From: Candidatus Omnitrophota bacterium | GTDB lineage: Bacteria > Omnitrophota > Omnitrophia > Omnitrophales > Aquincolibacteriaceae | Assembly: GCA_023247035.1 (NCBI GenBank) | Contig: JAHFHG010000005.1 | Coordinates: 7,515-71,514, forward strand | Direction: 5' to 3' | DNA: 64,000 bases | Shown: piece after piece, positions 27,286 through 42,990 of the stretch | Numbering within the stretch: position 1 is the stretch's first letter | How the letters are laid out: every line of letters starts with the position of its first letter | Made by a program: the position numbers and the translations under genes | The notes under the pieces: generated by a model | Seen by the model: only the letters and a program-made list of their open reading frames with translations | Database searches by the model: none | What the model was told of the DNA's origin: nothing

Positions 27286-27601
27286 AAGAAAGGCCGGGAG
27301 AATGTTCTTCCGACGCGGCTTGAAAATACCTCAGAAATTTTCGACTGACGGATGGATCGAGAAAAGATTCTTTATTCTTAACTTGAGTTCCGGGCGGCTC
27401 TTTTTGAAAAGCCGGCCCGTGTTTCGCGCGGGCTTCCAGACCGCTCGGGAATCGGAGCTCCCCGCCTTGTTTTAAAAATCGAACGAGATAAACGAGGCCG
27501 CCTAAGGCCGCAAGAAAAAGAATAAAAAATAAGCGGCGGAACATTTCGATGAAAAATTCCTTCGGCGGGAAAGTGAAAAAATGCGGCGGGCGCGTTTTCA
27601 T
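27272..27601 (-). CDS. Small single-TM protein at the rnfG position
   Basis: ATGA overlap with rnfD stop, 14-nt overlap with rnfE start; TM LFFILFLAALGGLVYLV; no FMN motif. Confidence 0.55.
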   Translation of the reverse strand: MKTRPPHFFTFPPKEFFIEMFRRLFFILFLAALGGLVYLVRFLKQGGELRFPSGLEARAKHGPAFQKEPPGTQVKNKESFLDPSVSRKFLRYFQAASEEHSPGLSYEEQ

Positions 27602-28506
27602 GGGTTTTGAATCGAAGCCCGGGCGCGCTTCGGGCGAACCCATTCGTCAATCCACGGGGTTAAGGCATTCATGAAAAGGACGGCAAAAATAATCCCGCCG
27701 GAGGGCGATCCCCGGCGCATAAAAACCGTGCAAACGGCCGCCCCCAGCGCAAAAAGCCAGTTTCCTTTTTGAGTCGACGGCGTCGTGACGGGATCTGTGA
27801 TGAAAAAAAAGGCGGCGAAAAAAGCGCCGCCCCACAAAAGATTCTTCCAGGGATCCAAGCCCGCCGCGCGAGAAAACAAAAAGAGGGCCCCTAAAAAAAT
27901 GGCGGGGACCCTCCAATCGATATATTTTTTCCAGATCAGCGCCAACCCTCCGGCTAAAAGCGCGGCCGCGCTCGTTTCACCGATCATCCCGGCGTCGTGG
28001 CCCAAAAAAAGACCGGGCGCCGGCAATCCCCCGCCGTCAAGGCTGAGCGGATGATTTGTCAAAATTCCGGTAAGCGGCTCTGGAGTCCGGCTCATCCCTT
28101 CCGGGAAAATGGCCCACAAAAAACCGGCGCCCAGAAGCGACGGGTGAAACGGATTTGCGCCCAAGCCTCCGAAAATTTCCTTCCCGAATAAAACCGTCAC
28201 GAAGCCGCCAAGAATGACTCTCCAAAAGGGAATGCCGGCCGGCATCAGCATTGAAAAAAGAAGGGCGGATAAAACTGTAAACCCGTTATAAAATGCCGGC
28301 TTTTTCCCAAACAGACGCGCGCTTAGGAATTCCGTAACCAGCCCCGTCAAAACCGCGGTGAAGACAATCCTTGCGGCATCCCAGCGGAACCAAAAAAAAG
28401 CGCTCGCAAGCGATGGAATAAGAGCCGCAACCGTAATCCAGAATCGCTGAGGCACGGAATCAAACGCTTTGATATGAGGCGGAAAAGTTGTGCGGTAAGG
28501 GGTCAT
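27598..28506 (-). CDS. rnfD: RnfD/RsxD family membrane subunit (divergent)
   Basis: PPHI, GKEIFGGLGANPFHP, GMIGETS, FFITDPVTTP, FAVLFMNALTPWID. Confidence 0.88.
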   Translation of the reverse strand: MTPYRTTFPPHIKAFDSVPQRFWITVAALIPSLASAFFWFRWDAARIVFTAVLTGLVTEFLSARLFGKKPAFYNGFTVLSALLFSMLMPAGIPFWRVILGGFVTVLFGKEIFGGLGANPFHPSLLGAGFLWAIFPEGMSRTPEPLTGILTNHPLSLDGGGLPAPGLFLGHDAGMIGETSAAALLAGGLALIWKKYIDWRVPAIFLGALFLFSRAAGLDPWKNLLWGGAFFAAFFFITDPVTTPSTQKGNWLFALGAAVCTVFMRRGSPSGGIIFAVLFMNALTPWIDEWVRPKRARASIQNP

Positions 28507-28611
28507 TGGAATGCCGGCAAAGCGTCTGTCTTATGTAACTTGAGTTGTGCAAATTTTGTTTTTCTTTCCGTCATTGTAAGAATGAAAAGGGTTATCTTTG
28601 ATGAAAGACCC

Positions 28612-29907
28612 TTAGGATTTTTTGGCCGTCCCGCCCAACTCGTTTTGAACAATCTTCTCAAAATTTTCGTACGGCTGAGCCCCGGAAACAGGATTGCCAT
28701 TGATAAAAAACGCCGGCGTTCCTCTGACCCCGGCAGCCTCGCCCGCCGCGATATCCTTTTTAACCGAATCCTTGTATCTCCCTTTGGCGAGGCATTCCTC
28801 GAATTTTTTTCTCTTCATCCCGGCCTCGTCCGCCAGACGGCTCAAGACGGCGTCGCCTTCGGCCAGGGCCGCCTGATTTTCAAAAAGCTTGTCGTGATAT
28901 TCCCAGAATTTTCCTTGTTCGGCCGCGCACTGAGACGCCTCGTGAGTCCGCTGGGACCCCTGATGAAAACTCAAAGGAAAATGCCGCCAAATTCTGCGGA
29001 CTTTTTTAGGATAATTTTCCAGCAGTTTATCGAGCGTCGGGCCTACCCTTTTACAAAAAGGGCAGTGGAAATCACTGAACTCGACGAGCGTAACCGGCGC
29101 GGATTGCGGGCCCTTCGAAGGTTTCCCCTCAAGATCACTGAAGAAAACCGGTTTCTTCGGCTCCGGGGAAACCTGCCGCGGCGCAGCCCTTGAAGGAGCC
29201 GCGGGCTGATTTTGATTTCCCCTCTTGGGATTCAAAATACTCTCCATAAGCTGCTCAAATTGCTCCGGCACGAACGTGCCCGAGCTCCGGTATTCATTGG
29301 CGACCTTAATCACAAAAGTGGGCGTTCCGAAAATATTATCTTCCTTGGCCCGCCGGATTTCTTCCTGAATAGCCTTCCGGTATTTTCCGCTTTTCAGGCA
29401 TTCTTGAAAGCGGTTCGGCTCGACGCCTGCGCCTTGGGCAATACGCGCAAGATCCAATTCCTTCGGAGGTTCTGGGAGATCAAAAACAGCGTCGTGAAAC
29501 GGCCAAAATTTTCCTTGCTCATAAGCGCACGCCGAGGCTTCGTGAGTGAAGAACGCGCCGGAGCCGGGAGAAGAGCCCGCATTGGGGAAATGGCGGAAAA
29601 TCATACGGACTGTCGTGGGATACTGCGTCATTATTTTTTTCACGCTCGCAGCCGCCAACCGGCTGTAAGGGCAATGAAAGTCCGCATATTCGATAAGGGT
29701 TACCGGGGCTTTATCGACATACCGGTAAGGCGCGGCCAGCTGGGCTGAGTTATCCGATAGAACAGCTTTCTCCTCGGCCTTGCTAAAAAGGCATTTTGAA
29801 CCTAAGCGCGGGATCGAAACGCCGGCGGCCTTGATCAGCAGGATCAAGAGCATTGAAAGAACCGCTCCTGACATAAGGCCTAAAAAGAAAAGTTTATTTT
29901 TCTCCAT
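28612..29907 (-). CDS. Membrane-anchored tandem DsbA/thioredoxin-fold protein
   Basis: N-terminal TM; two domains DFHCPYS...FRHFP...GTPTF and DFHCPFC...WRHFP...GTPAF; start MEKNK overlaps rnfC stop. Confidence 0.9.
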   Translation of the reverse strand: MEKNKLFFLGLMSGAVLSMLLILLIKAAGVSIPRLGSKCLFSKAEEKAVLSDNSAQLAAPYRYVDKAPVTLIEYADFHCPYSRLAAASVKKIMTQYPTTVRMIFRHFPNAGSSPGSGAFFTHEASACAYEQGKFWPFHDAVFDLPEPPKELDLARIAQGAGVEPNRFQECLKSGKYRKAIQEEIRRAKEDNIFGTPTFVIKVANEYRSSGTFVPEQFEQLMESILNPKRGNQNQPAAPSRAAPRQVSPEPKKPVFFSDLEGKPSKGPQSAPVTLVEFSDFHCPFCKRVGPTLDKLLENYPKKVRRIWRHFPLSFHQGSQRTHEASQCAAEQGKFWEYHDKLFENQAALAEGDAVLSRLADEAGMKRKKFEECLAKGRYKDSVKKDIAAGEAAGVRGTPAFFINGNPVSGAQPYENFEKIVQNELGGTAKKS

Positions 29908-31255
29908 AAGAGGAAGTAACGGCTGTTTCAACATTTGTTTTAGAATTTTGCGTTTCAAATTGCGCAGGCTCGGGATCCGGCTTGGAAATGCGCGAAGAAG
30001 CATAACGCAAAAGTTCCAGCATCGGGCGCTTCGAGGGGCACACGTAAGAGCAGTTTCCGCATTCGATGCAGCGCTCGACGCCGTAATCGCGGGCCGTTTC
30101 GAAAAGATCCCGTTCCGCGGCCAGCGTGATCATCACGGGAGAAATTTCAACCGGGCAATGGGCCACGCATTCCCCGCACCGGATACACGGTTCGACTCGC
30201 CCGGGCTTGGCAATTTCCGGAGGAAGCCCCAGGACCGCCGAGGTCGAAGCGATGACCGGCACGGCAAGATGTTCCTGCGCCATTCCCCTCATCGCCCCGC
30301 CCATAATGATTTTCTCTGGCCGGCGAAGCAAACCCCGCGCGCTTTTAATCAAGAATTCAAAATCCGCTCCGATGCGCGCCCAAACATTCTGTGGTTCCAC
30401 GATACATTCTCCGCCCACCGTCACGACCCTTTCATAAAAAGGCTTCTGAAGCGCGACCGCTTCGTAAGCCGCAAACGCGGCGGCCGGTTCAAAGACAGCG
30501 ATCGAATCTTCTGTTTCCTTGGAGCGAAATTGTTCAATGAGCAAAGAGGGCTCGTCTTGAGGAAATAGGGACGGAAAGATCCGGACCTCAAAATTTTTCC
30601 ACTTGAGGAAATAAATCTTGCTCTTCAGGATCTCCGCGGACTCCATCTTATCCGTTTCGGTCGCAATCATGACCCGTTCCGCCTCCGCCGCGCGCCGCAA
30701 AATCTCCGCGCCCTTCAAAAGTTCCAAAGGATGCGCCATCATTAACGCCTGGGCCGCGCTCACGTAAGGATCGGATTCGCAGGCGTTGATCACCATCGTG
30801 CGGATTCCCCGATGTTTCAAGATTTTTACGTGAAGGGGCATATTTTCGCGCTTGAAATCCGTGAGCCCCGCGTCGCGAAAAAGATTCAAATAATCTTCCG
30901 CGGAAAAAATCTCCCAGCCTTTTCTTTCAACGCCGATTTCGGCAAGCCGGCTGTCGCGCGAATCGGAAGTAATCTCAACACCGGAAGCAATGCCTTTTAA
31001 AGGATGCGGGAAAAATCCGAGGCCCGTCACTTCTCCCGCCACGCTGGAATGAATCGCGAGAGATTCGCCGCCGGAAGGAAGCGCGATCGTTTCTCCGACT
31101 TTCACGCGCGCGCCGAGGGCGACGCAGGGAACCGCCGGAGGCCCTGAAAAATCATCGTAAGGGATCCTGACTTTTGCCGGTGGAAACGGGCGGCGGATCT
31201 TGCAGGAAAGCAGGCTCGATTCTTTTTTGGATTTAAGAAGGATTCCCGGTGACAT
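29894..31255 (-). CDS. rnfC: RnfC/RsxC family subunit (divergent)
   Basis: IHSSVAGEV, INACESDPY, ERVVTVGG, two [4Fe-4S] motifs CIRCGECVAHCP and CIECGNCSYVCPS. Confidence 0.88.
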   Translation of the reverse strand: MSPGILLKSKKESSLLSCKIRRPFPPAKVRIPYDDFSGPPAVPCVALGARVKVGETIALPSGGESLAIHSSVAGEVTGLGFFPHPLKGIASGVEITSDSRDSRLAEIGVERKGWEIFSAEDYLNLFRDAGLTDFKRENMPLHVKILKHRGIRTMVINACESDPYVSAAQALMMAHPLELLKGAEILRRAAEAERVMIATETDKMESAEILKSKIYFLKWKNFEVRIFPSLFPQDEPSLLIEQFRSKETEDSIAVFEPAAAFAAYEAVALQKPFYERVVTVGGECIVEPQNVWARIGADFEFLIKSARGLLRRPEKIIMGGAMRGMAQEHLAVPVIASTSAVLGLPPEIAKPGRVEPCIRCGECVAHCPVEISPVMITLAAERDLFETARDYGVERCIECGNCSYVCPSKRPMLELLRYASSRISKPDPEPAQFETQNSKTNVETAVTSSYGEK

Positions 31256-31320
31256 GATTTTGTGTGTTGTTGATTTCAATAAAAAAAATAATTTTATTGC
31301 CCCCTGCAGAATCAATTTTA

Positions 31321-31390
31321 AGGGCGTATGGCAACCTGCCGGCTCGCCTTTCGGCGGACCTGCGGCGAGCGAGGCAGGTACGCCCCTACA
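31321..31390. repeat. REP-like palindrome interrupted by a 44-bp CCTGCC...GGCAGG hairpin
   Basis: AGGGCGTATGGCAA[31335-31378]TACGCCCCTAC; outer part matches the palindrome at 14765. Confidence 0.75.
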
Positions 31391-31399
31391 GTGGGAACG

Positions 31400-32224
31400 T
31401 CAGTTTTGAATCTTCAACCCGTCGTTTAATTTTCCTTGGCGATACCCTTCCGGATCAATCTCAACGGATTCAAACCCGAGCTGCTTCAATTTTGAGGAAA
31501 TTTTTTCAGTGAGCGCCGGATCCGAAATGAGACGGGCCAATTCCTCTTTTCCTAATTCCACTTTCGCATCATTTCCAAAATGCCGGAGCCGGACGATCCG
31601 GAATCCGCACGATTTTAAAAAAGCCTCGCCTAAATCAACTTGCCGGAGTTTGGCCGGCGTAATTTGCTCGCCGTAAGGAAAACGGCTTGAGAGGCAGGCG
31701 GCGGCGGGCTTATTCCAAGTCGGAAGCCCCAGTCCGCGGGAAATTTCCCGGATCTCGCTTTTGATAAGGCCCGCCTCCACAAGCGGGCTTTTAATCTGAT
31801 GCTCCGCCGCCGCGACCAGCCCGGGACGCCAATCGCCGAGGTCGTCTACGTTCACTCCATTGGCAATCGTTTTGATCTTCCACCGGCCGGCAAGATTTGT
31901 AAGCTGAGTATAAAGCTCCGTTTTGCAAAAGTAGCAGCGGTTGGCGGGATTGGCGGCGTAATTCGGATTTTCAATCTCCCGCGTTTCGATCCAGGAATGG
32001 TCAATGTCAAACTGATCCTTCAAGGATTCCACTTCTTTGAGTTCGGCCTGCGGCAGGGATTCGCTCTTTGCGGTCACGGCCTTTATCCGTTCACGTCCGA
32101 GGACGTCCCGCGCCACCTTCGCCACCAGCGCGGAATCGCAGCCCCCGGAGAAAGCAATGATCACGCTTTCATAGGAAGCCAGAATCTTTTTAAGGCTCTC
32201 GTATTTCTCAGGCAAAGGAATCAA
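31400..32224 (-). CDS. larE: LarE-like ATP-dependent sulfur transferase (PP-loop)
   Basis: AFSGGCDS, NPANRCYFCK, DDLGDWRPG, ACLSSRFPYG, GYRQGKLN; TTG start after GGAGG. Confidence 0.88.
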   Translation of the reverse strand: MIPLPEKYESLKKILASYESVIIAFSGGCDSALVAKVARDVLGRERIKAVTAKSESLPQAELKEVESLKDQFDIDHSWIETREIENPNYAANPANRCYFCKTELYTQLTNLAGRWKIKTIANGVNVDDLGDWRPGLVAAAEHQIKSPLVEAGLIKSEIREISRGLGLPTWNKPAAACLSSRFPYGEQITPAKLRQVDLGEAFLKSCGFRIVRLRHFGNDAKVELGKEELARLISDPALTEKISSKLKQLGFESVEIDPEGYRQGKLNDGLKIQN

Positions 32225-33305
32225 TCCAGCCTCCTCCCAAAACGCGCGGGCCGTCGTAGAAAACCGCGGCCTGGCCCGGGGTGATGGCATCTTGCGGCTC
32301 GTCGAAAGTAACTCTTACAGACTTATAATCGCTTCCGACTTCCAGCGCTGCGGGAGCCTTTTTGTGCTGGGAACGGATTTTCACCTGAGCGCGGAAATGC
32401 AGCCTCTCGCCCGGATTTAAGAACCAGTTGACCTTTCCCACTTCACAGGTACGATTGAAGACCTCCTCCTTGGCGCCGACCACAATTTCGTTTTTTTCAG
32501 GATCCGTATCGATCACGTAAAGCCGCTCCGAGTGGGCGACTCCCAATCCTCTTCGCTGCCCTCTTGTATAATGAAAAAATCCCGAATGTTCGCCTAAGAT
32601 TTTTCCGTCTTTTGTGCGGATTGCGCCTCGAGATTGAGCCTGAGCAGCCTCTGGTTTTTCGCGTTTCAAAAACGTCCCGTAATCATTGCTCGGGATAAAA
32701 CAAATTTCCTGGGAATCGGGCTTGTCCGCGACGCAAAGATTCCTATTTTTGGCCTCGGCTCGGATCTCAGCCTTCGTGTAGCGGCCCAGCGGAAGCGTAA
32801 GATGTTTTAAAACATCGCTGTCCAGAGGAAACAAAACATAAGACTGGTCTTTGGAGCTGTCCAGGCCTTCTGAAAGAAAAAAAGCTTCGTTTGGAGCGTC
32901 GTAATCCAGACGGGCGTAATGGCCGGTGGCGATAAAATCGTAGCCAAGCTGGCGCGCGCGGGAAAGAAACAGACGGAATTTAATGTGCTCATTGCAGGCA
33001 ATGCAGGGATTCGGCGTGCGGCCTTTGAGGTATTCGGCGGTAAAATAATCCACGACGTATTGCTTGAACTCTTTTTCGAAATTAAAAACCCAATAACGAA
33101 TGCCTAAAGTATCCGCCACCTCGCGCGCGTCTTCAACTCCCGTAAGCCCGCAGCACGTTTTGGTATTACGGTCCGCGCACGTCTCCGAGGCCCAGGTGCG
33201 GATCGTAGCTCCGGCCACCTCGTGGCCTTCCTCTTTCAACAAGGCCGCCGCCACCGAGCTGTCCACTCCGCCGCTCATGGCCACAAGGATTTTTTTTCTG
33301 TCCAT
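32208..33305 (-). CDS. mnmA: tRNA-specific 2-thiouridylase
   Basis: AMSGGVDSS, TPNPCIACN, ATGHY, KDQSY, DSQEICF, GQRRG, TPGQAAVFY. Confidence 0.98.
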   Translation of the reverse strand: MDRKKILVAMSGGVDSSVAAALLKEEGHEVAGATIRTWASETCADRNTKTCCGLTGVEDAREVADTLGIRYWVFNFEKEFKQYVVDYFTAEYLKGRTPNPCIACNEHIKFRLFLSRARQLGYDFIATGHYARLDYDAPNEAFFLSEGLDSSKDQSYVLFPLDSDVLKHLTLPLGRYTKAEIRAEAKNRNLCVADKPDSQEICFIPSNDYGTFLKREKPEAAQAQSRGAIRTKDGKILGEHSGFFHYTRGQRRGLGVAHSERLYVIDTDPEKNEIVVGAKEEVFNRTCEVGKVNWFLNPGERLHFRAQVKIRSQHKKAPAALEVGSDYKSVRVTFDEPQDAITPGQAAVFYDGPRVLGGGWIDSFA

Positions 33306-33334: not shown

Positions 33335-34075
<741 letters not shown>

Positions 34076-34134: not shown

Positions 34135-35523
34135 TCACTGATCTTCCGCTTCTTCCCGAATGGATTCATAGGTGACATCAAGCAGAAAATTTAATTCCTC
34201 ATGAGAAATCGTTAAAGGCGGCATCAAAACAATCACCGGGCCCAGCGGGCGCAGGATCACACCTTTTTTTTTGGCGCGCCGGGTCACGCGAAGGCCTATC
34301 TTTTCGCGCCAGGGGAAAGGCTCCTTTGTCTTCGCGTCCTTCACAAGCTCAATGCCGATCATAAATCCTGCCTGCCGAATATCGCCGACAATCGGAATGT
34401 TATAAAAATCCGCAAGCCTTCGCTGCGCAAGACTGATTTTGAGTTCCAGTTTTTCCAGGACCCTGTTTTTTCCAAAAAGCTTCAAGCTCGCAAGCGCGGC
34501 GCTGCACGCTAAGGGATTGGCCGTAAATGTATGGCCGTGGAAAAAAGTTTTGAATTCTTGGTACTCTCCCAGGAAAGCGCTGTAAATTTTTTCGGTTGCA
34601 AGGGTCGCAGCAAGGGGAAGGTACCCGCCGGATAACCCCTTTGCGACGGCCATAAGATCAGGGGCCGCATTTTCCTGCCGGCTTGCAAACAAGCTCCCCG
34701 TTCTCCCAAAACCAGTTGCCACCTCGTCGGCAATAAGCAGCACATTATACTTTCTGGTCAGTTCCCTTGCACGCGAAATGTAGCCGGAGGGCTGATCAAT
34801 CATTCCCGCCGCGCCCTGCATCAGAGGCTCCAAGACAAGCGCCGCGATTTCTTGATGATGCCGGGCGAGCACCTTCTCAAGCCCGCTCAAGGCCTCGTCT
34901 CGGACCCTGTCGGCCTCACTTCCTCCCGGCCACCGGTACCGGTAAGGAGAAGGGGCGCTGAAGGTCTCAAAAAGAAGCGGCCTGTAAATTTCGTGGAAAA
35001 GATCAATCCCTCCGACACTTACGGATCCCAGGGTATCGCCGTGATAAGCGTTGACCAGCTTGACAAATTTGGTCTTGGCGGGTTTGCCGGTCTGGCGCCA
35101 GTATTGATACGCCATCTTCAAAGCAATTTCAACGGCCTCGGAACCGGAGTCGGAATAAAAAACCCGCGCCAATCCCGCCGGGGCGATACGGATTAATGCT
35201 TCGGCAAGCAGGATCGCGGGGCCATTGGAAAGCCCAAGGAAGGTGGAATGAGAAATGGCGTTAAGTTGTTTTTTGACGGCCGCGTCGATTTCTTTGACGC
35301 GGTGGCCGTGGACATTGCACCAAAGGGAGGAAACGCCGTCCAAATAACGTTTGCCGTCCATATCCTCAAGCCAGACGCCGCTGCCGCTGCGAATAATCGT
35401 GATTTTTTCCTTCTCCCAATCTTTCATTTGGGTAAAAGGATGCCACACGTATTTTTTGTCTTTGGCTTCTAAGGATCGCTTTTTATAAGCCTTTTTTTTT
35501 ACGGCCGTCTTCACCGATTGCAT
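34135..35523 (-). CDS. bioA: 7,8-diaminopelargonate aminotransferase
   Basis: WHPFTQM, SSLWCNVHGH, SGSEAVEIALKMA, YHGDT, DEVATGFGRTG, AKGLSGG. Confidence 0.97.
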   Translation of the reverse strand: MQSVKTAVKKKAYKKRSLEAKDKKYVWHPFTQMKDWEKEKITIIRSGSGVWLEDMDGKRYLDGVSSLWCNVHGHRVKEIDAAVKKQLNAISHSTFLGLSNGPAILLAEALIRIAPAGLARVFYSDSGSEAVEIALKMAYQYWRQTGKPAKTKFVKLVNAYHGDTLGSVSVGGIDLFHEIYRPLLFETFSAPSPYRYRWPGGSEADRVRDEALSGLEKVLARHHQEIAALVLEPLMQGAAGMIDQPSGYISRARELTRKYNVLLIADEVATGFGRTGSLFASRQENAAPDLMAVAKGLSGGYLPLAATLATEKIYSAFLGEYQEFKTFFHGHTFTANPLACSAALASLKLFGKNRVLEKLELKISLAQRRLADFYNIPIVGDIRQAGFMIGIELVKDAKTKEPFPWREKIGLRVTRRAKKKGVILRPLGPVIVLMPPLTISHEELNFLLDVTYESIREEAEDQ

Positions 35524-35600: not shown

Positions 35601-36359
35601 TTAAACGAGCGGCGGGCCCTCTTCGCAGTGCAGGAGCCGGGTCTTCTTCCTCAGCGTCCTAAGGACAATGTAAACAAAAAAGCCGATACTCAAAAAGAAA
35701 ATCCAAACCGGCCGGAATTCAAGCTCGTGGTTCCCCAATAATTCAGCAAAGAATTTAATGGCGACGAACCCGGCGATGATGCCGAAGAAAGTTGAATATT
35801 CGCGTTTCAAGACCATACGCCACGAAAATCGGGCCGCCGGCCTGCGCCACTTCCGCAGATTGGGGAAAAACGCGGGCGTTGCGTCGGCCCATTTTTGGAA
35901 AGTTTCTCCAAATTCCTTTTCGAGGAATGCCTCCTCCGCAAAAATAATCCGCTCATAAAAAAGGCAGAAGAGGAGCGAAAACATAACGACGAACCACCAC
36001 ACCTGAACAAACAAGGCAAATCCGAGGGTGATCATGAAATTTCCAAGGTAAAGCGGATGCCGCATCATCGAGTAAGGGCCTTGGGTATTCAAAAATTTGG
36101 CAAGTTGGCCCTGGGTGTTCCGGCCCGATGTACCTTCCGGAACCCAGCCCACCGTGAGCATCCTCAGCCCAAGGCCGCTGAAGGAAATAAGAATACAAAA
36201 GATTTCCCATACCGTCTGCACTCCGTCCCCAAAATGCCGGCCGATATATTCGGAGTCCCTTAAAGCAGCGAGCAGCAAAGGAAGGATCAGCAGCGGGAAA
36301 TAACTGCGGCGCCTAAAAAGCCAGTTGCCTCTTTTTTCGAAATCGCGGCTGAGATTCAT
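35601..36359 (-). CDS. ICMT/PEMT-family membrane methyltransferase, LmtA-like
   Basis: FEKRGNWLFRRRSYFP, GTSGRNT, GPYSMMRHPLYLGN, YERIIFAEEAFL. Confidence 0.8.
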   Translation of the reverse strand: MNLSRDFEKRGNWLFRRRSYFPLLILPLLLAALRDSEYIGRHFGDGVQTVWEIFCILISFSGLGLRMLTVGWVPEGTSGRNTQGQLAKFLNTQGPYSMMRHPLYLGNFMITLGFALFVQVWWFVVMFSLLFCLFYERIIFAEEAFLEKEFGETFQKWADATPAFFPNLRKWRRPAARFSWRMVLKREYSTFFGIIAGFVAIKFFAELLGNHELEFRPVWIFFLSIGFFVYIVLRTLRKKTRLLHCEEGPPLV

Positions 36360-36364
36360 GGAGA

Positions 36365-37135
36365 TTAAAAACTTAAAACCGCAGGGCTGTCCTGGCCGCC
36401 GGCGATACAGCAAATCCGTTTCTTGCCCTGGCGTTTGGCCTGGTCCAGCGCCGCTTGAGCGCGAGAAGAAAACTCCTTCCTCTCCTCGCCGGTTTGATAA
36501 GAAGTGATGCCTGCGCTAAAACCGATATCCATTTTCTCCTCGGCCTGAATGAGAAGGCGGGAAAGAAGTTTTTCAGAACGGACAAGGTCGGTGTGAGGAA
36601 GCGCAATGCAAAAAGTGTCGTTTTCAACGCGGGTTAGAATGTCCGAGGAGCGGGTATGCCCCTGCAGAAAATGGGAGAATGTTCTTAATACCTCGTCGCC
36701 CCGAGCCCGGCCAAACTGCTCATTGCAGGAAGTAAAATGATCCAAATCCAAAAAACACAGCGCGATTGGAAAATGATAACGGCCGGCCCTCCGCAATTCA
36801 TTTTCAAGGGCCTGTTCAAATCCGGCGTGGTTCATCAATCCGGTGAGATCATCGCACAAAAGCCTTCTCTCAAGCTCAAGCCACCGCTTGCGGAAAAGCA
36901 AGGCTGAAACGCCCAAAAGAAGATTCAAAACACAAAGGCCGCCTACCCCGGCCCACAATCCTGCTTCCCTCTTGTTTTGAACAAGCCCTGCCCAATTTCC
37001 TTTAGTAAGATAAAACAAAATGCCTAACGCCAATACGCTGCAAAACCCCGTGGATTTAAGGAAAATTTCTTCGAGCCTTCTGCAGGAGTCCCGCTGACTG
37101 GTAAGATGATGATTTGCTAAGCGGTCAAATTTCAA
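36365..37135 (-). CDS. Membrane-anchored degenerate GGDEF-domain protein
   Basis: 2 TM; DDLTGLMN, DLDHF, GDEVL, SAGI, AKRQGK; active-site motif reads VENDTF. Confidence 0.85.
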   Translation of the reverse strand: MKFDRLANHHLTSQRDSCRRLEEIFLKSTGFCSVLALGILFYLTKGNWAGLVQNKREAGLWAGVGGLCVLNLLLGVSALLFRKRWLELERRLLCDDLTGLMNHAGFEQALENELRRAGRYHFPIALCFLDLDHFTSCNEQFGRARGDEVLRTFSHFLQGHTRSSDILTRVENDTFCIALPHTDLVRSEKLLSRLLIQAEEKMDIGFSAGITSYQTGEERKEFSSRAQAALDQAKRQGKKRICCIAGGQDSPAVLSF

Positions 37136-37201: not shown

Positions 37202-38386
37202 TTAGGCTATGGGAGATTGTTTGCTTTTCCCCAGGCAAGAAACCAACGCCCCAAGAAAGCGTTCGATATCTTCTTCCGTGTGATCCGCCCTCAATGTCAC
37301 GCGAAGCCTCGCCTTTCCCTTCGGGACCGAAGGCGGCCTGATGGCCGGCGCCAAAAAACCCTGATCCCTGAGACGATCAGAGACCGCAAGGGCGTCTTCT
37401 TCGGAACCTATAAGAATGGGAAAAATGGGAGAAGAAATCTTTTCCTGCAAAAGGCCTGCCTCAAAAAGCCCCCGCGTCATTTTTTGGACATTTCGCGCGA
37501 GATCAGCCCGCAGCCCCGGTTCCTCTCGAATAAGGCGCAAGGCCTGCGAAGCCGCTGCGCACACCGCAGGCGGAAGGGCCGTTGCAAAAATAAACGGCCG
37601 GGCGTGATTGATCAGGTATTCCCAGATGGTTTTAGAAGTTGCCGCAAAGCCGCCGAGACACCCCAGCGACTTCGACAAAGTCCCGACAATGACGTCGACC
37701 TCATTTTCGAGTCCGGCCTCTTCAACCGCTCCCCGTCCCCCCGCGCCGAGAACTCCCGTGCCGTGCGCGTCGTCGAGAATAAGCAGGCACTCATATTTTT
37801 TTTTCAGCCTCGCAAGCTCGTTCAGATCCGCGCAGTCTCCGTCCATACTGAACACGGTATCGGAAACTAAAACCCGCCGCCGGTAATTTTTGCTTTTCTC
37901 AAGGATTTCGAAACAGCGTCTGTAATTTTTATGGGGGAAAACGCGGATCGCGGCCCCGGACAGCCTGGCCCCGTCAATCAGCGAGGCGTGGCATAATTTA
38001 TCCATCACGATAACGTCTTTTTCATTCGCAAGCGCGCTTACGACTCCAATGTTGGCAAGATAGCCTGCGGTAAAAAGAAGGGCCTTTTCCTTTTTTTTGA
38101 AGTCTGCGATTTCCTTTTCAAGCCGGGTGTGAAGATCCGTGGTGCCGGAAATCAGACGAGCGGCTCCGGCCCCTACGCCGTAAAGTTCCGCGGCCTGTTT
38201 GAAGGCGCGGATCAGGCGCGGATGATGGGCCAATCCCAAATAATCGTTGCCGCAAAAAAGCAAAATTTCCCGGCCGTCCAGGAACGCATATTTTCCTTTG
38301 GGATCGGAAAGGAAACGCAAGCTGCGGTGCGAATGGCTGGCGCGAAGAAGGGCAAGCTCCTCCTCAAAGACCTGAAGAACGCTCAT
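37202..38386 (-). CDS. bioF: 8-amino-7-oxononanoate synthase
   Basis: NDYLGL, HASLIDG, VFSMDGD, DDAHG, GTLSKSLG, IRPPSVP. Confidence 0.95.
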   Translation of the reverse strand: MSVLQVFEEELALLRASHSHRSLRFLSDPKGKYAFLDGREILLFCGNDYLGLAHHPRLIRAFKQAAELYGVGAGAARLISGTTDLHTRLEKEIADFKKKEKALLFTAGYLANIGVVSALANEKDVIVMDKLCHASLIDGARLSGAAIRVFPHKNYRRCFEILEKSKNYRRRVLVSDTVFSMDGDCADLNELARLKKKYECLLILDDAHGTGVLGAGGRGAVEEAGLENEVDVIVGTLSKSLGCLGGFAATSKTIWEYLINHARPFIFATALPPAVCAAASQALRLIREEPGLRADLARNVQKMTRGLFEAGLLQEKISSPIFPILIGSEEDALAVSDRLRDQGFLAPAIRPPSVPKGKARLRVTLRADHTEEDIERFLGALVSCLGKSKQSPIA

Positions 38387-39606
38387 CGCTTTGTCTGGGC
38401 AAGGGCAATGGCGGCGATATGCCCTCCAAATCCCATTGAAAGAGAGACCGCGGTTTCGACCTGGGCCTTGCGTGCCTTTAAGGGCGTGTAATCCAGATCG
38501 CAGACAGGGTCACGTTCTTCGAGACCGGCCGTGGGAGGGATAAAGCCTTCATTCATTGCGAGGAGACACGCGATAATCTCAACCGCGCCCGAGGCGCCAA
38601 GCATATGTCCGGTCATTGATTTGGTTGAGCTCATCGGAATGCGACAGGCCTCGCGCCCGAACGCTTTTTTAAGCTGATCCGTTTCGTAAATGTCGCCGCT
38701 CAACGTTCCTGTGCCGTGCAGATTGATGTAATCGATCGTTCGCGGATCAAGCCGCGTTTTCTTCATGAGGTCACGCAGCGTTCTTTCCAGCGTATTGTTC
38801 TCCTTCTTAAAATGGAGAGGATCGGACGAGTCGATTCCGTAAGCGCCGCCTAAAATTTCTCCATAAATCCGGGCGTTTCTGGCTTTTGCGCTTTCCATCG
38901 TTTCAAGAAACACGATCCCCGCTCCCTCGCCGATTAAAAAACCGCTCCTCCGCTTGTCAAAAGGCCTCATTGAATCCTTGGCCAGGACTTTCATCTTCTT
39001 ATATCCTGCCAAAAGGAGCGGTACGATCGAGGCGTCGCTGGCGCCGGCGATACAATAATCAACCACGCCGTCGGAAACCATCCGCGCTCCCTCAAGAACC
39101 GCAACCGTGCCTGTGGCGCAGGCCGCAACGTAGCACTTGGCCGGGCCCTGGATCTTCCAGCGCCGGGCAATCCACTGGGCCGCAAAGTTCGGAACCGTAT
39201 TGGAATAAATCCGAGCGCCAAGAATAGCGCTCGGGTGTTTGGCGAACCGCTCCTTAAACCGGTCCAGCGTATGCATTCCGCCCTTGCTTGAACTGACTGA
39301 GATTCCGATCCGGTAACGGTCTATGGTTTCGGGATCAAAATAGGCGTTTTGAATCGCTTCGCCCGCCGCGGCGACGGCGTATTGAATAAAAGGATCCAAA
39401 AAATGGGCCTTGTGGGCGCGCGCCTCGAAATTTTTTACCTCAAAGGCCTTCGTGACGGGAAAATTAGAACAATCAAAACAGGTAATGCGTCCTTCCCCGG
39501 AAATCCCGCCGGAAAGATTTTTACAAAACGCGGGAACCCCGATGCCGATCGGGGAGACAACGCCCATTCCCGTCACCACAACCCGCCTTGGCAAATTAAT
39601 CCTCAA
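38383..39606 (-). CDS. FabF-like beta-ketoacyl-ACP synthase
   Basis: VVVTGMGVVSPIG, AACATG, RPFD, GEGAG, HGTGT, KSMTGHMLGASG, GFGG. Confidence 0.9.
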   Translation of the reverse strand: MRINLPRRVVVTGMGVVSPIGIGVPAFCKNLSGGISGEGRITCFDCSNFPVTKAFEVKNFEARAHKAHFLDPFIQYAVAAAGEAIQNAYFDPETIDRYRIGISVSSSKGGMHTLDRFKERFAKHPSAILGARIYSNTVPNFAAQWIARRWKIQGPAKCYVAACATGTVAVLEGARMVSDGVVDYCIAGASDASIVPLLLAGYKKMKVLAKDSMRPFDKRRSGFLIGEGAGIVFLETMESAKARNARIYGEILGGAYGIDSSDPLHFKKENNTLERTLRDLMKKTRLDPRTIDYINLHGTGTLSGDIYETDQLKKAFGREACRIPMSSTKSMTGHMLGASGAVEIIACLLAMNEGFIPPTAGLEERDPVCDLDYTPLKARKAQVETAVSLSMGFGGHIAAIALAQTKR

Positions 39607-39706: not shown

Positions 39707-41542
39707 TCAAAGCGCCGTTTCTGAAGATGAGCGAAGAACCTTTTCGGATTCAAGCAGGGCCAGGATTTTCTTGGCGTTTTTATTGACCGCATCTTGAGGA
39801 TCTAAGTTTAAATCGACAATCCCTTCCCGGAAACTATTCTCTCCCACGTTTACAATAAACATATCCGCGCGGTCCGCCACTTCCTGCAGCAGTCTCAGCT
39901 CCTCATCATTAAGATTGCTGGCGGTTGCAAGAACGATCAAGCCCGCATCCATCAGAAGGTGCGAGACTTCCCCGAGCCGGCGGACGTGCTCTCTTCGCGC
40001 GGAGCGGTCTTTTTCAAGATCCGCGTCCAGCCCGCGCAGCAGATTGCCAATGCCTAAAAAATATGTTTTTGCCTCTCGTTCAAAGAGGATTTTTTCCACT
40101 TCCTTGGCGATCGATTTTTTGTCGACCCCGACTTTCCCGGTGAGCAGGATCAGCTTGGGGCGGTGGCCGTAGCGGGCCTCGCGTGCCTTGGGATCTACAA
40201 TGCTGAAATCCCATTTCATTTCGCGCTTCTGGACCTGTTCCCGGACCTCAGCCTGATCATCTTTGACCAGGGCGGAAATAATCCCTCCGCCCGAAATATC
40301 ATATTTGTCCACGATCACGAACCGGCCGGTGGCTTCGATGCTGCTTGCGAGATCAAAGGCGACCGGCGAAGCGCACTCCAGAATAACTTGCGCGACGTCG
40401 TGCCGGTCAATGCGGTTTTTTTTTCTTTTTTTCAGATCCGAGGCGTCGATAATTTTTTTGATCTTCCGGAGCCGCGCCGGGACCTTGGCGGCCGCGATCT
40501 TCAATTGGTATTCCTTATCAAGGGCCATAGGCTCCTTGCCCATCCAGAAAATTTCCGCCTGGATCAGCGTGCTGACCCACGGGGGAGGCTCCTCGAGCTT
40601 GCACATCATGTCCCCGCGGTTGATATAGATCTGCTCCTTCAAGGTGAAGCCCGCCGAATAACCGGCCGCTGTCTTTTTGCGCGGCGCCGCATTGAATGCT
40701 TCGATCGATTTGATTTCCGAACGCTTGTTGGAAGGCAGAAAAACCACCTTGTCTCCGGCCGCGATCGAGCCGGATTCGATCTTACCGGCAATGATCCTCC
40801 GGTCGTCCCCGGCTTCGGTGAATTTGTAGACCGCCTGCACCGGCATACGGAAGGGTTTTTCCTCAAGGCTCTTGGCGTTTTCAAAAGAATCCAGCACCTC
40901 AAGAATCGATTCCCCTGAAAACCATGCAAATTTGGGTTGTTCGGGCAGAATATTTATGCCTTTAAGGGCGGAGATCGGAATAAAGAATTTGGGTTCGATA
41001 TCAATTTGCTTCAAAAATTTCCGGTATTCATTCTCAATCTTTCTAAAAACTTTTTCGTCATTGCCGACAAGATCCATTTTGTTGATGCAAACCGCGATCT
41101 GGCGAATGCCCAACATGGAAAGCAGATAACCGTGCCGGCGGGAATTTTCCTGCACGCCCTCCTTGGCGTCGATCACAAGCAGGGCCGCCTCGGCGCGCGC
41201 CGCGCCGCTCACCATATTTTTGAGGAATTCAATATGCCCCGGCGCGTCAATGATGAGGTATTCCCTCTTCCGGCTCCTGAAAAAACAACGGGCGCTGTCA
41301 ATGGTGATCCCTTGAGCTTGCTCATCTTTAAGGGCGTCTAAAAGAAAGGCGTACTCAAAAGGTTTGGCGTTTCGGGCGCACTCCGCGCGGACCTGTTCCA
41401 GCTTGCCTTGGGGAAGAGAACCGGTGTCGTGAAGGAGCCGGCCGATCACCGTGCTCTTGCCGTGATCCACGTGGCCGACAATCACGATATTCATTTTTTC
41501 ATTTGAAGATTTTTTCATAGCGGAATGGGCGGGCCGGCTCAC
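39707..41542 (-). CDS. cysN: Sulfate adenylyltransferase large subunit with degenerate APS-kinase C-terminal domain
   Basis: [27 protein letters not shown]; C-terminal [11 protein letters not shown]...DAGLIV. Confidence 0.92.
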
Positions 41543-42420
41543 ATATAACCTTCGCGGCGCAGGGTCTCGAGTCCGCCGCCGTCTTCTTTATCCTGCGCGC
41601 GGCCGGCTCGTTCGGCCACATGGGCGAATTTTCCGGTCTTGAGCTCGGCGATAATTTCTTTCACGTTTTTAGCGGTCGATGGAACGGGAAACGTGCACGG
41701 GTAGCAGCCGAGCGACCGGTACCTTTCCCCTTTTCCGTGATCAAAATAAAGAGAAACGACCGGGATGTTCTCGCGGTCAATGTATTCCCAAATATTCAGT
41801 TCCGTCCAATCCAGAAGCGGATGGATCCGGACGTGGGTCCCTGGAGCGAAATCCGTTTTAAATTGGTTCCAAAGTTCGGGCGGCTGGTCTCCGACATTCC
41901 AATCGCTTCGCTTATCGCGCGGTGAAAAATACCGCTCCTTTGAGCGGCTTCCCTCTTCATCCGAACGCACTCCGACAATGACGCCGGTATAAGGCTCTTT
42001 ATTTTTATCCGGGACATATTTTTTCTGCCGATGATCCAGCCGGTAGCGCGTCCACTGGCCGGATAACGTATTCCTCAAGGCGTCTGTTTTAAGCGTCCGG
42101 CAGCAGGAGATCCTGTCCAGCGCGCCGTCGGGAAAGGTCTGCTTCTCGCGGAGCGCCTGTTCATTTTGCCCGTAAATCATATTCAGCTTCCACTCCAGGG
42201 CCAGCTTGTCGCGGTATTGAATCATTTCAGGAATTTTATAGGCGGTATCAATATGCGCCAGCGGAAAAGGGACGTGGCCGAAAAACGCCTTGCGGGCAAG
42301 CCATAAGAGGACTGTGCTGTCTTTGCCGATGGACCACAGCATTGCGAGGTTTTTAAATTGGCTGTAGGCCTCCCGCAAGATATAAACGGACTGGCTTTCG
42401 AGTTTTTCTAAATGATCCAT
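41539..42420 (-). CDS. cysD: Sulfate adenylyltransferase small subunit
   Basis: [37 protein letters not shown]. Confidence 0.96.
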
Positions 42421-42451: not shown

Positions 42452-42752
42452 TAATTCCGCTTGAGATCTCGCGCAGGGATAGAAGGCTATTAGCATAAGG
42501 AAGTTTTTTTCAGCGTCATTCTTATTCGAAAGGCGAGAAAGCGGAAAAAATAACACGGCTGGGGGGAAAAATGCAAACCACGAAAAACTGCCGGAACCCT
42601 GAACCAAGTCCTGGTTTATCGCGTGGAGTCGAAAGGGCTCATTCGTTAAGAACCTAAGACTCGCTGCGCCTGCTGGCAGGCAGATTCGCTCAGGATAAGG
42701 CCCCGTTTGTAGAGATCAAGAATTTCCGAGGACTCAAATCATATAAGATCGG

Positions 42753-42843
42753 CGGAGAGTGAGCGATTCGAACGCTCGAGGGCGGCTTTCACCACCCCAG
42801 CGGTTTAGCAAACCGCCGCCTTAGACCACTCGGCCAACTCTCC
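42753..42843 (-). tRNA. tRNA-Ser(GCT)
   Basis: Acceptor GGAGAGT/ACTCTCC, anticodon arm GCGGT-TTGCTAA-ACCGC, long variable arm, GTTCGAAT, G discriminator; CCA not encoded. Confidence 0.95.
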
Positions 42844-42907
42844 GCGATAAGAGGAATGGGAAACAAAAAATAAATCAGAGGGCAAGTCCCTCCAGATCGA
42901 ATAATAT

Positions 42908-42990
42908 CGGAGGGCGAGGGACTCGAACCCCCAAGTCCTCGCGGACGGCGGTTTTCAAGACCGCTGCCATACCAGTTAGGCGAGCCCTCC
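42908..42990 (-). tRNA. tRNA-Ser(TGA)
   Basis: Acceptor GGAGGGC/GCCCTCC, anticodon arm GCGGT-CTTGAAA-ACCGC, variable arm, GTTCGAGT, G discriminator; CCA not encoded. Confidence 0.95.

Follow-up and report, generated by a model that had tools for sequence, protein, structure and literature searches.

A KAS II-fold ketosynthase with a lysine at the FabF back gate as a likely source of pimeloyl-ACP for biotin synthesis in Omnitrophota

How does a bacterium that carries bioF, bioA, bioD and bioB obtain the pimeloyl arm of biotin when the known genes for that step cannot be found in its genome? The question is raised by a 64,000-nucleotide stretch of DNA from a Candidatus Omnitrophota bacterium (contig JAHFHG010000005.1, positions 7,515 to 71,514), analysed as a whole and referred to here as the window, in which a gene for a β-ketoacyl-acyl carrier protein synthase of the FabF or KAS II type (hereafter the KAS) runs directly into bioF. 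Four routes to the pimeloyl arm, namely BioC-BioH, BioI/BioW, BioZ and BioE, are set out in PMC12704756 (December 2025; articles are cited by identifier and for the parts of them available to us). Here, we describe the evidence that the KAS is a second, intact KAS II-fold ketosynthase, which likely makes pimeloyl-acyl carrier protein (pimeloyl-ACP) for BioF in place of BioC-BioH. Its assignment as a biotin-precursor ketosynthase is well supported, and by analogy its known kindred would be BioZ and the enzyme of the Desulfovibrio bio cluster. This explanation is built on gene coupling, the catalytic triad, residue identity, the known routes not being found and a distribution complementary to that of BioC, and from these we infer the substrate, the primer, the role of the lysine and the use of the host ACP and reductases.

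The ketosynthase and its genome

The features of the KAS-bioF pair are listed below in window positions.

38383..39606, minus strand: KAS II-fold ketosynthase with Ser107-Lys108 and Tyr202, 407 amino acids from a TTG start (open reading frame, profile and fold match)
39283..39285, minus strand: KAS Lys108 codon, at the FabF Ile108 back-gate position (alignment)
39118..39120, minus strand: codon of the KAS catalytic Cys163 (alignment)
38716-38718, minus strand: KAS His297 codon (alignment)
38605-38607, minus strand: KAS His334 codon (alignment)
39001-39003, minus strand: KAS Tyr202 codon (alignment)
38383..38386, minus strand: ATGA, overlap of the KAS stop and the bioF start (sequence)
37202..38386, minus strand: bioF, 8-amino-7-oxononanoate synthase, 394 amino acids (TIGR00858, 456.6 bits against a cut-off of 426.45)

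The likely KAS start is at TTG 39594, with GAGGA five bases upstream; it gives 403 amino acids and is a better match to the lengths of the homologues. The overlap of the two genes, the intact Cys-His-His triad (C163/H297/H334) and a lysine at the position of FabF Ile108 had all been read from the DNA in an earlier, sequence-only note (the original prediction), and each is borne out. Together with the triad, the gate phenylalanine (F393) is present, and in a gap-free phmmer alignment Lys108 falls in the sole column that distinguishes Bacillus subtilis FabF (PDB 4ls5), with Ile, from the I108F mutant (4ls6), with Phe. The residue lies in an SSSKGG motif and is found in 120 of 120 close homologues, in which S107, D191, Y202 and G304 are likewise invariant, as well as in all 50 Omnitrophota loci examined; those homologues that carry names belong to Candidatus Omnitrophota. 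The predicted model has the FabF fold, with a mean predicted local distance difference test (pLDDT) score of 85.6 and a Foldseek template-modelling score of 0.91 to B. subtilis FabF. The KAS thus shares with FabF/KAS II enzymes (TIGR03150; PDB 4ls5, 1e5m, 2gfw) the fold, the triad, the gate phenylalanine and 33-39% identity. In contrast to FabF, it has Ser-Lys for Gly107-Ile108, Tyr for Phe202, Asp for Glu191 and Gly-Asp at the Asn310 region, a loop of about six residues is deleted, its gene lies outside the fab operon, and the hydrophobic I108-F202 back gate is replaced by K108/Y202. Its scores fall below the cut-offs both of TIGR03150 (377.9 bits; equivalog cut-off 493.75) and of PRK05952 (NF004618; 242.2 bits, cut-off 455).

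The host genome comprises 1.85 Mb and is 92.8% complete, and the negative results that follow refer to that assembly. Six KAS II-like genes are present, among them a housekeeping fabF (GSGIGG), a check set beforehand, which lies in a plsX-fabH-fabD-fabG-acpP-fabF operon on contig C22 and is 37-38% identical to the bio KAS. The original prediction had also held that the known pimelate genes are missing, and genome-wide searches agree: BioC (0 of 14 matches above cut-off, best 53.6 bits), BioW, cytochrome P450 and a second FabH were not found, and BioH gave only one weak partial match (32.5 bits). No CoA-transferase of family III (CaiB type, PF02515) was found genome-wide, other glutaryl-CoA sources not having been searched, nor were homologues of two proteins encoded at Bacteroidota loci, which we label BioE-like from their position and PMC12704756. 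Tblastn searches with the genes of a Desulfobacterales locus (L279) and five FabG proteins from the bio operons of relatives detected none of the dedicated ACP, FabZ-like, FabG and nitroreductase genes of the Desulfovibrio-type cluster; the five operon FabG proteins, which are 38-66% alike among relatives, matched only the housekeeping FabG (31-35%).

In relatives, the KAS belongs to a larger bioB-fabG-cysDN-KAS-bioF operon, which is split in the host genome, its private FabG not being found. The host bioB is on a separate contig, C50 (L001:1450-2508), behind ThiS-like and NIL-domain genes and with no FabG after it. The bioF of the locus is the sole BioF-like gene detected by tblastn, and the biotin carrier protein AccB is encoded at C22:23267-23713; a search for biotin ligase with a Desulfobacterales BirA sequence as the only query gave no match at E 1e-4. 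Because neither the genes of the known routes nor the operon FabG were found, the KAS is the only dedicated candidate gene for the pimelate step in the host genome. A genome without the usual private FabG of the operon, in which the KAS stands alone, is a new observation. In other loci (L008, L011, L096 and L137), bioB runs straight into the KAS too.

Alternation with BioC in Omnitrophota and other phyla

Co-location of the KAS with bio genes and its anti-correlation with BioC, both anticipated by the original prediction, are seen across the Omnitrophota. In 41 of 46 distinct genomes, bioF is directly downstream of the KAS; of the other five, four are cut off by the end of a contig and one carries bioB-fabG upstream instead. 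Among 251 sampled genomes, the KAS (counted at E <= 1e-95) is present in 71, full-length BioC in 75 and both in none, with one partial BioC match (8e-26, G106) left uncounted. Three further KAS copies beside bioF (G001, G138 and G068) are below the threshold, and with those three the KAS is found in 74 of 78 genomes of the host's class, compared with 0 of 173 outside it at that threshold. An arginine follows the catalytic serine of the relatives' operon FabG at 45 of 48 loci, with five genomes represented twice, as opposed to 0 of 21 other FabG rows. Two genomes of family f11, G136 and G142, have glutamine in place of this arginine. In the same family, a class I methyltransferase gene follows bioF (L135:1783-2457 and L164:5516-6190), G136 retaining the KAS and G142 being without it, which is possibly a replacement in progress.

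Evidence from outside the phylum comes from Cyanobacteriota, in which the relevant protein is PRK05952 (NF004618; 'FabF2'). With the Omnitrophota KAS it has in common the Ser107-basic108 dyad (GSSR, with Arg108, in 31 of 31 cyanobacterial copies), the loop deletion, complementarity to BioC and stand-alone use without a private ACP or reductase; it differs in being only 30-33% identical and mostly encoded outside bio operons. It is annotated as β-ketoacyl-ACP synthase only, and the literature searched gives it no function. Of 101 genomes, 70 have bioB, and these carry either PRK05952 (31) or full-length BioC (38), never both, with one genome (G310) having neither; none of the 31 bioB-negative genomes has PRK05952 or BioC. 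Four genomes with only partial matches (E about 1e-23) were left out of the BioC count. The 34 small BioC genomes were considered as picocyanobacteria, a reading that was dropped as the six placed in an rpoB tree of 40 genomes fall outside the oxygenic clade, and for this reason 34 of the 38 BioC genomes add little. Inside that clade, a bioH-bioC cassette accompanied by bioF and/or bioD is found in four genomes (G272, G293, G308 and G323), whose only FabF is the housekeeping one. In a 29-row rpoB tree, from which G340, G280 and nine other rows were left out, these four occupy two places on starred branches and three on the best tree. Every one of these swaps goes in the direction predicted, and their number is too small for a sign test. 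G344, a 5.4-Mb genome of the oxygenic clade, lacks bioB, bioF, BioC and PRK05952, and is by its gene content likely a biotin auxotroph; its starred sister G348 has the KAS. The cyanobacterial alternation therefore rests on only two to three independent swaps and one co-loss. As for gene context, PRK05952 lies 57 bases before bioY in Pseudanabaena and follows a cyclophilin gene in 27 of the 31 genomes.

In Synechocystis, the name FabF is given to two genes, sll1069 and slr1332 (PMC5798194), and a review describes the pimeloyl-ACP synthesis step in this organism as undetermined (PMC7133116). In the CRISPR interference fitness rows of a partial supplementary table of PMC10615215, fabF2 has negative fitness under all 11 conditions (-0.5 to -3.1; adjusted p < 0.05 in two), compared with -3.1 to -6.0 for fabF, -1.8 to -3.0 for bioB and -3.1 to -4.8 for bioF. 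The fabF2 profile correlates with bioB at r 0.80, with bioF at 0.24 and with fabF at 0.02, a weak indication that has no null distribution. From a by-eye reading of the guide and antisense entries, we infer that 'fabF' in that table is the 1e5m housekeeping gene, that 'fabF2' is slr1332 and that slr1332 is of the PRK05952 type. Among the top-ranked results of a literature search, with most subscription journals and bioRxiv supplements outside its coverage, there was no Lys/Arg108 KAS II in biotin synthesis and no link between slr1332 and biotin.

In Planctomycetota, a Ser/Thr-Ser-Lys KAS is present in 9 of 131 genomes and in one of them, G446, overlaps a bioF that clears the family cut-off; full-length BioC occurs in two other planctomycete genomes. 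In Bacteroidota, bioA is present in 101 of 201 genomes, and 40 bioA loci were fetched as 13-kb stretches, mostly from non-Bacteroidales-sized genomes. These contain bioC (22), a GSSR KAS adjoining bioA (5), a fabH-like gene (2), a BioE-like gene (2) or none of these (9), and no locus has two; the five GSSR KAS loci are without bioC within the 13 kb. In L388 and L389, the FabH-like gene sits between bioA and bioF, a BioZ-like placement. The alternation of BioC with a KAS bearing Ser107-Lys/Arg108, seen in three phyla, is new. Wider searches were less productive: a pattern scan of genome contigs returned mostly unrelated KASs, the 80 kept including eight Omnitrophota-type, two planctomycete and two cyanobacterial loci, a profile search of representative genomes was dominated by modular polyketide synthases, with eight two-domain KASs lacking the motif, and the ESM Atlas gave generic KAS clusters only.

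A FabF-like gene among bio genes is known from the Desulfovibrio vulgaris cluster DVU2558-DVU2565 with DVU1220 (PMC545781; PMC10102598), in which genetics has shown that it is required without biotin (PMC10102598). The Omnitrophota locus likewise has a FabF-like KAS among bio genes; in contrast, the Desulfovibrio cluster has its own ACP, FabZ-like domains, FabG and nitroreductase, of which none was found in the host and FabG only in its relatives. The Desulfovibrio enzyme was compared through three Desulfobacterales clusters of the same layout as stand-ins for DVU2563, found among 23 bioF loci and comprising ACP, FabZ-like and, in L279, nitroreductase genes. The KASs of these clusters have Gly-Pro-Asn at positions 107-109 where the Omnitrophota KAS has Ser-Lys-Gly, and Arg193 instead; they are 27-28% identical to it and lie on a separate long branch. 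The absence of a basic residue at 108 in the Desulfobacterales cluster enzymes is likewise new.

In KAS trees (LG+G4, with 18-19 listed rows left out), the Omnitrophota KASs form a starred clade. One tree unites Omnitrophota, planctomycete and cyanobacterial KASs with four other ketosynthases on a 95/97 branch; in a second, the three group at 86/62. This grouping is not resolved in the first tree, in a third one or after removal of the motif columns. Their monophyly was not rejected (p 0.47). The Bacteroidota and Desulfobacterales KASs are on long separate branches and their unions were not rejected either (p 0.08-0.27); those of Desulfobacterales are separate in all free trees, and approximately unbiased tests of their union with the Omnitrophota KAS gave p 0.27 and 0.08. 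The loop deletion shared by PRK05952 and the Omnitrophota KAS also occurs in three unrelated ketosynthase rows. One family and convergence on the same gate residue are indistinguishable here, common ancestry being weakly supported.

The surroundings of the locus

The remaining features of the locus, in window positions, are as follows.

36365..37135, minus strand: GGDEF-domain gene between bioF and bioA, a bystander (profile match)
35601..36413, minus strand: LmtA/ICMT-like membrane methyltransferase between bioF and bioA, a bystander (LmtA, 214 against a cut-off of 325 bits)
34135..35523, minus strand: bioA (TIGR00508, 536.8 bits, above cut-off)
33335..34057, minus strand: bioD (TIGR00347, 164.5 bits, above cut-off)
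39707..42420, minus strand: cysD-cysN, same strand and upstream of the KAS (profile matches)
41539-42420, minus strand: cysD (open reading frame)
39707-41542, minus strand: cysN (open reading frame)
42751..42990, minus strand: two tRNA-Ser genes at the place of the relatives' bioB-fabG, the break point of the larger operon

The original prediction described a bioF..bioA-bioD cluster headed by the KAS. All three bio genes pass their cut-offs; bioF and bioA are parted by the GGDEF and methyltransferase genes, and the KAS does not head the cluster: cysD-cysN lie upstream of it on that strand, 100 bases away. In relatives with cysD-cysN, the pair is placed between the bio-fabG and the KAS, and most relatives' operons are without it. 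The interposed methyltransferase was considered as a BioC stand-in and rejected, many relatives being without that gene; L129, L132, L138 and L162 are among those in which bioA begins at most about 200 bases after bioF. Beyond bioD, the strand continues with mnmA, larE, an rnfC-like gene, a gene for a two-domain thioredoxin-like protein and rnfD-like genes (27598-33305). A scan for BirA-type operators gave two matches with three mismatches, far from the KAS-bioF locus and at chance level, and a promoter and terminator scan gave matches at chance level only.

Several other Omnitrophota loci are arranged differently. In family f24 (L154-L158, five genomes), a conserved protein of 465-479 amino acids without a Pfam match is encoded between bioF and bioD, in stretches without BioC or a Lys108 KAS. 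This protein and a FabG-like gene were considered as a KAS-free version of the module and set aside: the protein has no homologue in the host genome, and the FabG-like gene lacks the arginine and resembles a relocated housekeeping FabG. In family f23 (L146-L151), gcvT- and gcvH-like genes come after bioB-bioF-bioA-bioD, the operon contains no pimelate gene, and no Lys108 KAS was found in the three genomes, out of six, that were searched for one. In L152, L153 and L161, a BioU-like gene takes the place of bioA with no pimelate gene nearby (L152 scores 383.9 bits against a BioU cut-off of 600). L160:319-2616 is a long frame after a BioH-like gene, with a BioC-like start and a BioD-matching end, an apparent BioC-BioD fusion that was missed by the BioC search.

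Proposed mechanism, alternatives and significance

We consider it highly probable that the KAS serves biotin-precursor synthesis. The association of the Ser-Lys/Arg dyad with biotin in other phyla, in planctomycete G446, Bacteroidota and cyanobacterial PRK05952, counts in favour of this role. In the proposed mechanism, the KAS would load an acyl-ACP with a free terminal carboxylate, malonyl-ACP and then glutaryl-ACP; Lys108, beside Ser107 and Tyr202, would hold the carboxylate at the gate near carbons 7-8 of a bound chain, the held chain would be condensed with malonyl-ACP, and each product would be reduced by the housekeeping FabG, dehydratase and enoyl reductase. With Lys or Arg at 108, beside Ser107, the gate would hold the terminal carboxylate while the chain has three or five carbons and obstruct one of seven, so that extension would stop at C7. 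Two rounds from malonyl-ACP with host reductases are our first choice, because KAS II enzymes use primers carried on ACP and no CaiB was found. That the KAS extends free-carboxylate acyl-ACPs to pimeloyl-ACP in this manner has somewhat better than an even chance. There are precedents for the single steps: I108-F202 is the FabF back gate at about C7-C8, and I108F confines FabF to C6-to-C8 (PMC9006962); two rounds from malonyl-ACP have been proposed for Desulfovibrio (PMC10102598); and in a BioZ assay, host FabG/FabA/FabI process the C7 dicarboxylic intermediate (PMC7645780).

Several observations weigh against this explanation. The host assembly is incomplete, and the AlphaFold model, weak near K108 (block pLDDT 69, next block 50), was rejected as a guide to the direction of Lys108, which it leaves unsettled. 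Asp191, which replaces FabF Glu191 in the Omnitrophota family, could pair internally with Lys108. Given its distribution by class, the exclusion of BioC by the KAS in Omnitrophota is one lineage split and counts as one event. Fifteen bio operons from four other Omnitrophota families (f20, f23, f24 and f53) have neither BioC nor KAS in the fetched stretch, and genome-wide searches of nine of these genomes gave no Lys108 KAS; a missing BioC therefore need not entail a Lys108 KAS. In G136, the KAS is present and bioF is followed by a class I methyltransferase gene, and only one of the nine planctomycete KAS copies was seen beside bioF. For BioZ, malonyl-CoA was no primer, and glutaryl-ACP was not seen in cells (PMC7645780).

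The alternative that survives best is a single BioZ-like step, in which the KAS would make pimeloyl-ACP only from an externally supplied glutaryl thioester and malonyl-ACP. A malonyl group on the active-site cysteine risks decarboxylation, which favours a glutaryl primer. BioZ itself is a precedent (PMC7645780), and a C5 carboxylate would come nearer to the C7-C8 gate than C3 (from PMC9006962). We nonetheless regard this as unlikely: no family III CoA-transferase was found, within the limits of that search, KAS II enzymes use primers carried on ACP, and the relatives' private FabG, with its basic pocket residue, would suit short dicarboxylic intermediates. The original prediction of a functional analogue of BioZ holds in part. 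BioZ resembles the KAS in being a single condensing enzyme for BioC-BioH, for which the end of the pocket is proposed to carry polar and basic residues and whose product is finished by host reductases (PMC7645780; PMC8024396), and the KAS lies in the bio cluster of a genome where bioC and bioH were not found. In contrast, BioZ is a FabH-type Cys-His-Asn enzyme that uses glutaryl-CoA from CaiB, whereas the KAS has the Cys-His-His KAS II fold. The biotin-precursor role has stood up to those checks of the original prediction that were run, namely the separate housekeeping fabF, the position of bioF and the lack of overlap with BioC; the failure to find a CaiB-type gene, the failure of malonyl-CoA as a BioZ primer and the partial activity of a BioZ Arg147 mutant speak against a closer analogy (PMC7645780; PMC8024396).

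Rather improbable is a KAS without a biotin role, acting on short chains or special lipids, such as octanoyl chains for lipoate or, in conjunction with cysDN, a sulfur-lipid, in a mixed operon. It would account for cysD-cysN and the other non-biotin genes on the same strand, for the cyclophilin rather than bio context of most cyanobacterial copies, and for the short-chain FabF that a bulky residue at 108 gives (PMC9006962); however, the gene is repeatedly found with bio genes, namely in Omnitrophota, Bacteroidota, a planctomycete and a single cyanobacterium, loss of the cyanobacterial KAS coincides with gain of BioC or loss of bioB and bioF, and cysDN is not a regular part of the operon. Least probable is a KAS with a biotin role in which Lys108 is structural, pairing with D191 and closing the pocket, while other residues deal with the carboxylate or a methyltransferase that has escaped recognition masks it: the invariant D191, the partial activity retained by BioZ R147A (PMC8024396), the Desulfobacterales cluster KASs and the methyltransferases of G136 and G142 fit it, but the cyanobacterial and Bacteroidota KASs mostly have Glu191 yet Arg108, and neither BioC nor BioH was found in the host genome.

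Returning to the proposed carboxylate-binding KAS, we lean, by a modest balance of the evidence, towards a broader view in which Ser107-Lys/Arg108 KAS II enzymes would constitute a fifth, oxygen-independent, one-gene route to pimeloyl-ACP, used by an entire Omnitrophota order, by part of the Planctomycetota and Bacteroidota and by the majority of oxygenic cyanobacteria, with PRK05952 (Synechocystis slr1332), long annotated as a second FabF, as the missing first biotin enzyme. If this is true, the pimeloyl gap of several uncultured phyla and of most cyanobacteria would be filled by one enzyme family, the gene would be named in a model organism in which the open step is testable, and a one-gene entry to pimelate, free of S-adenosylmethionine and oxygen, would be available for biotin production.

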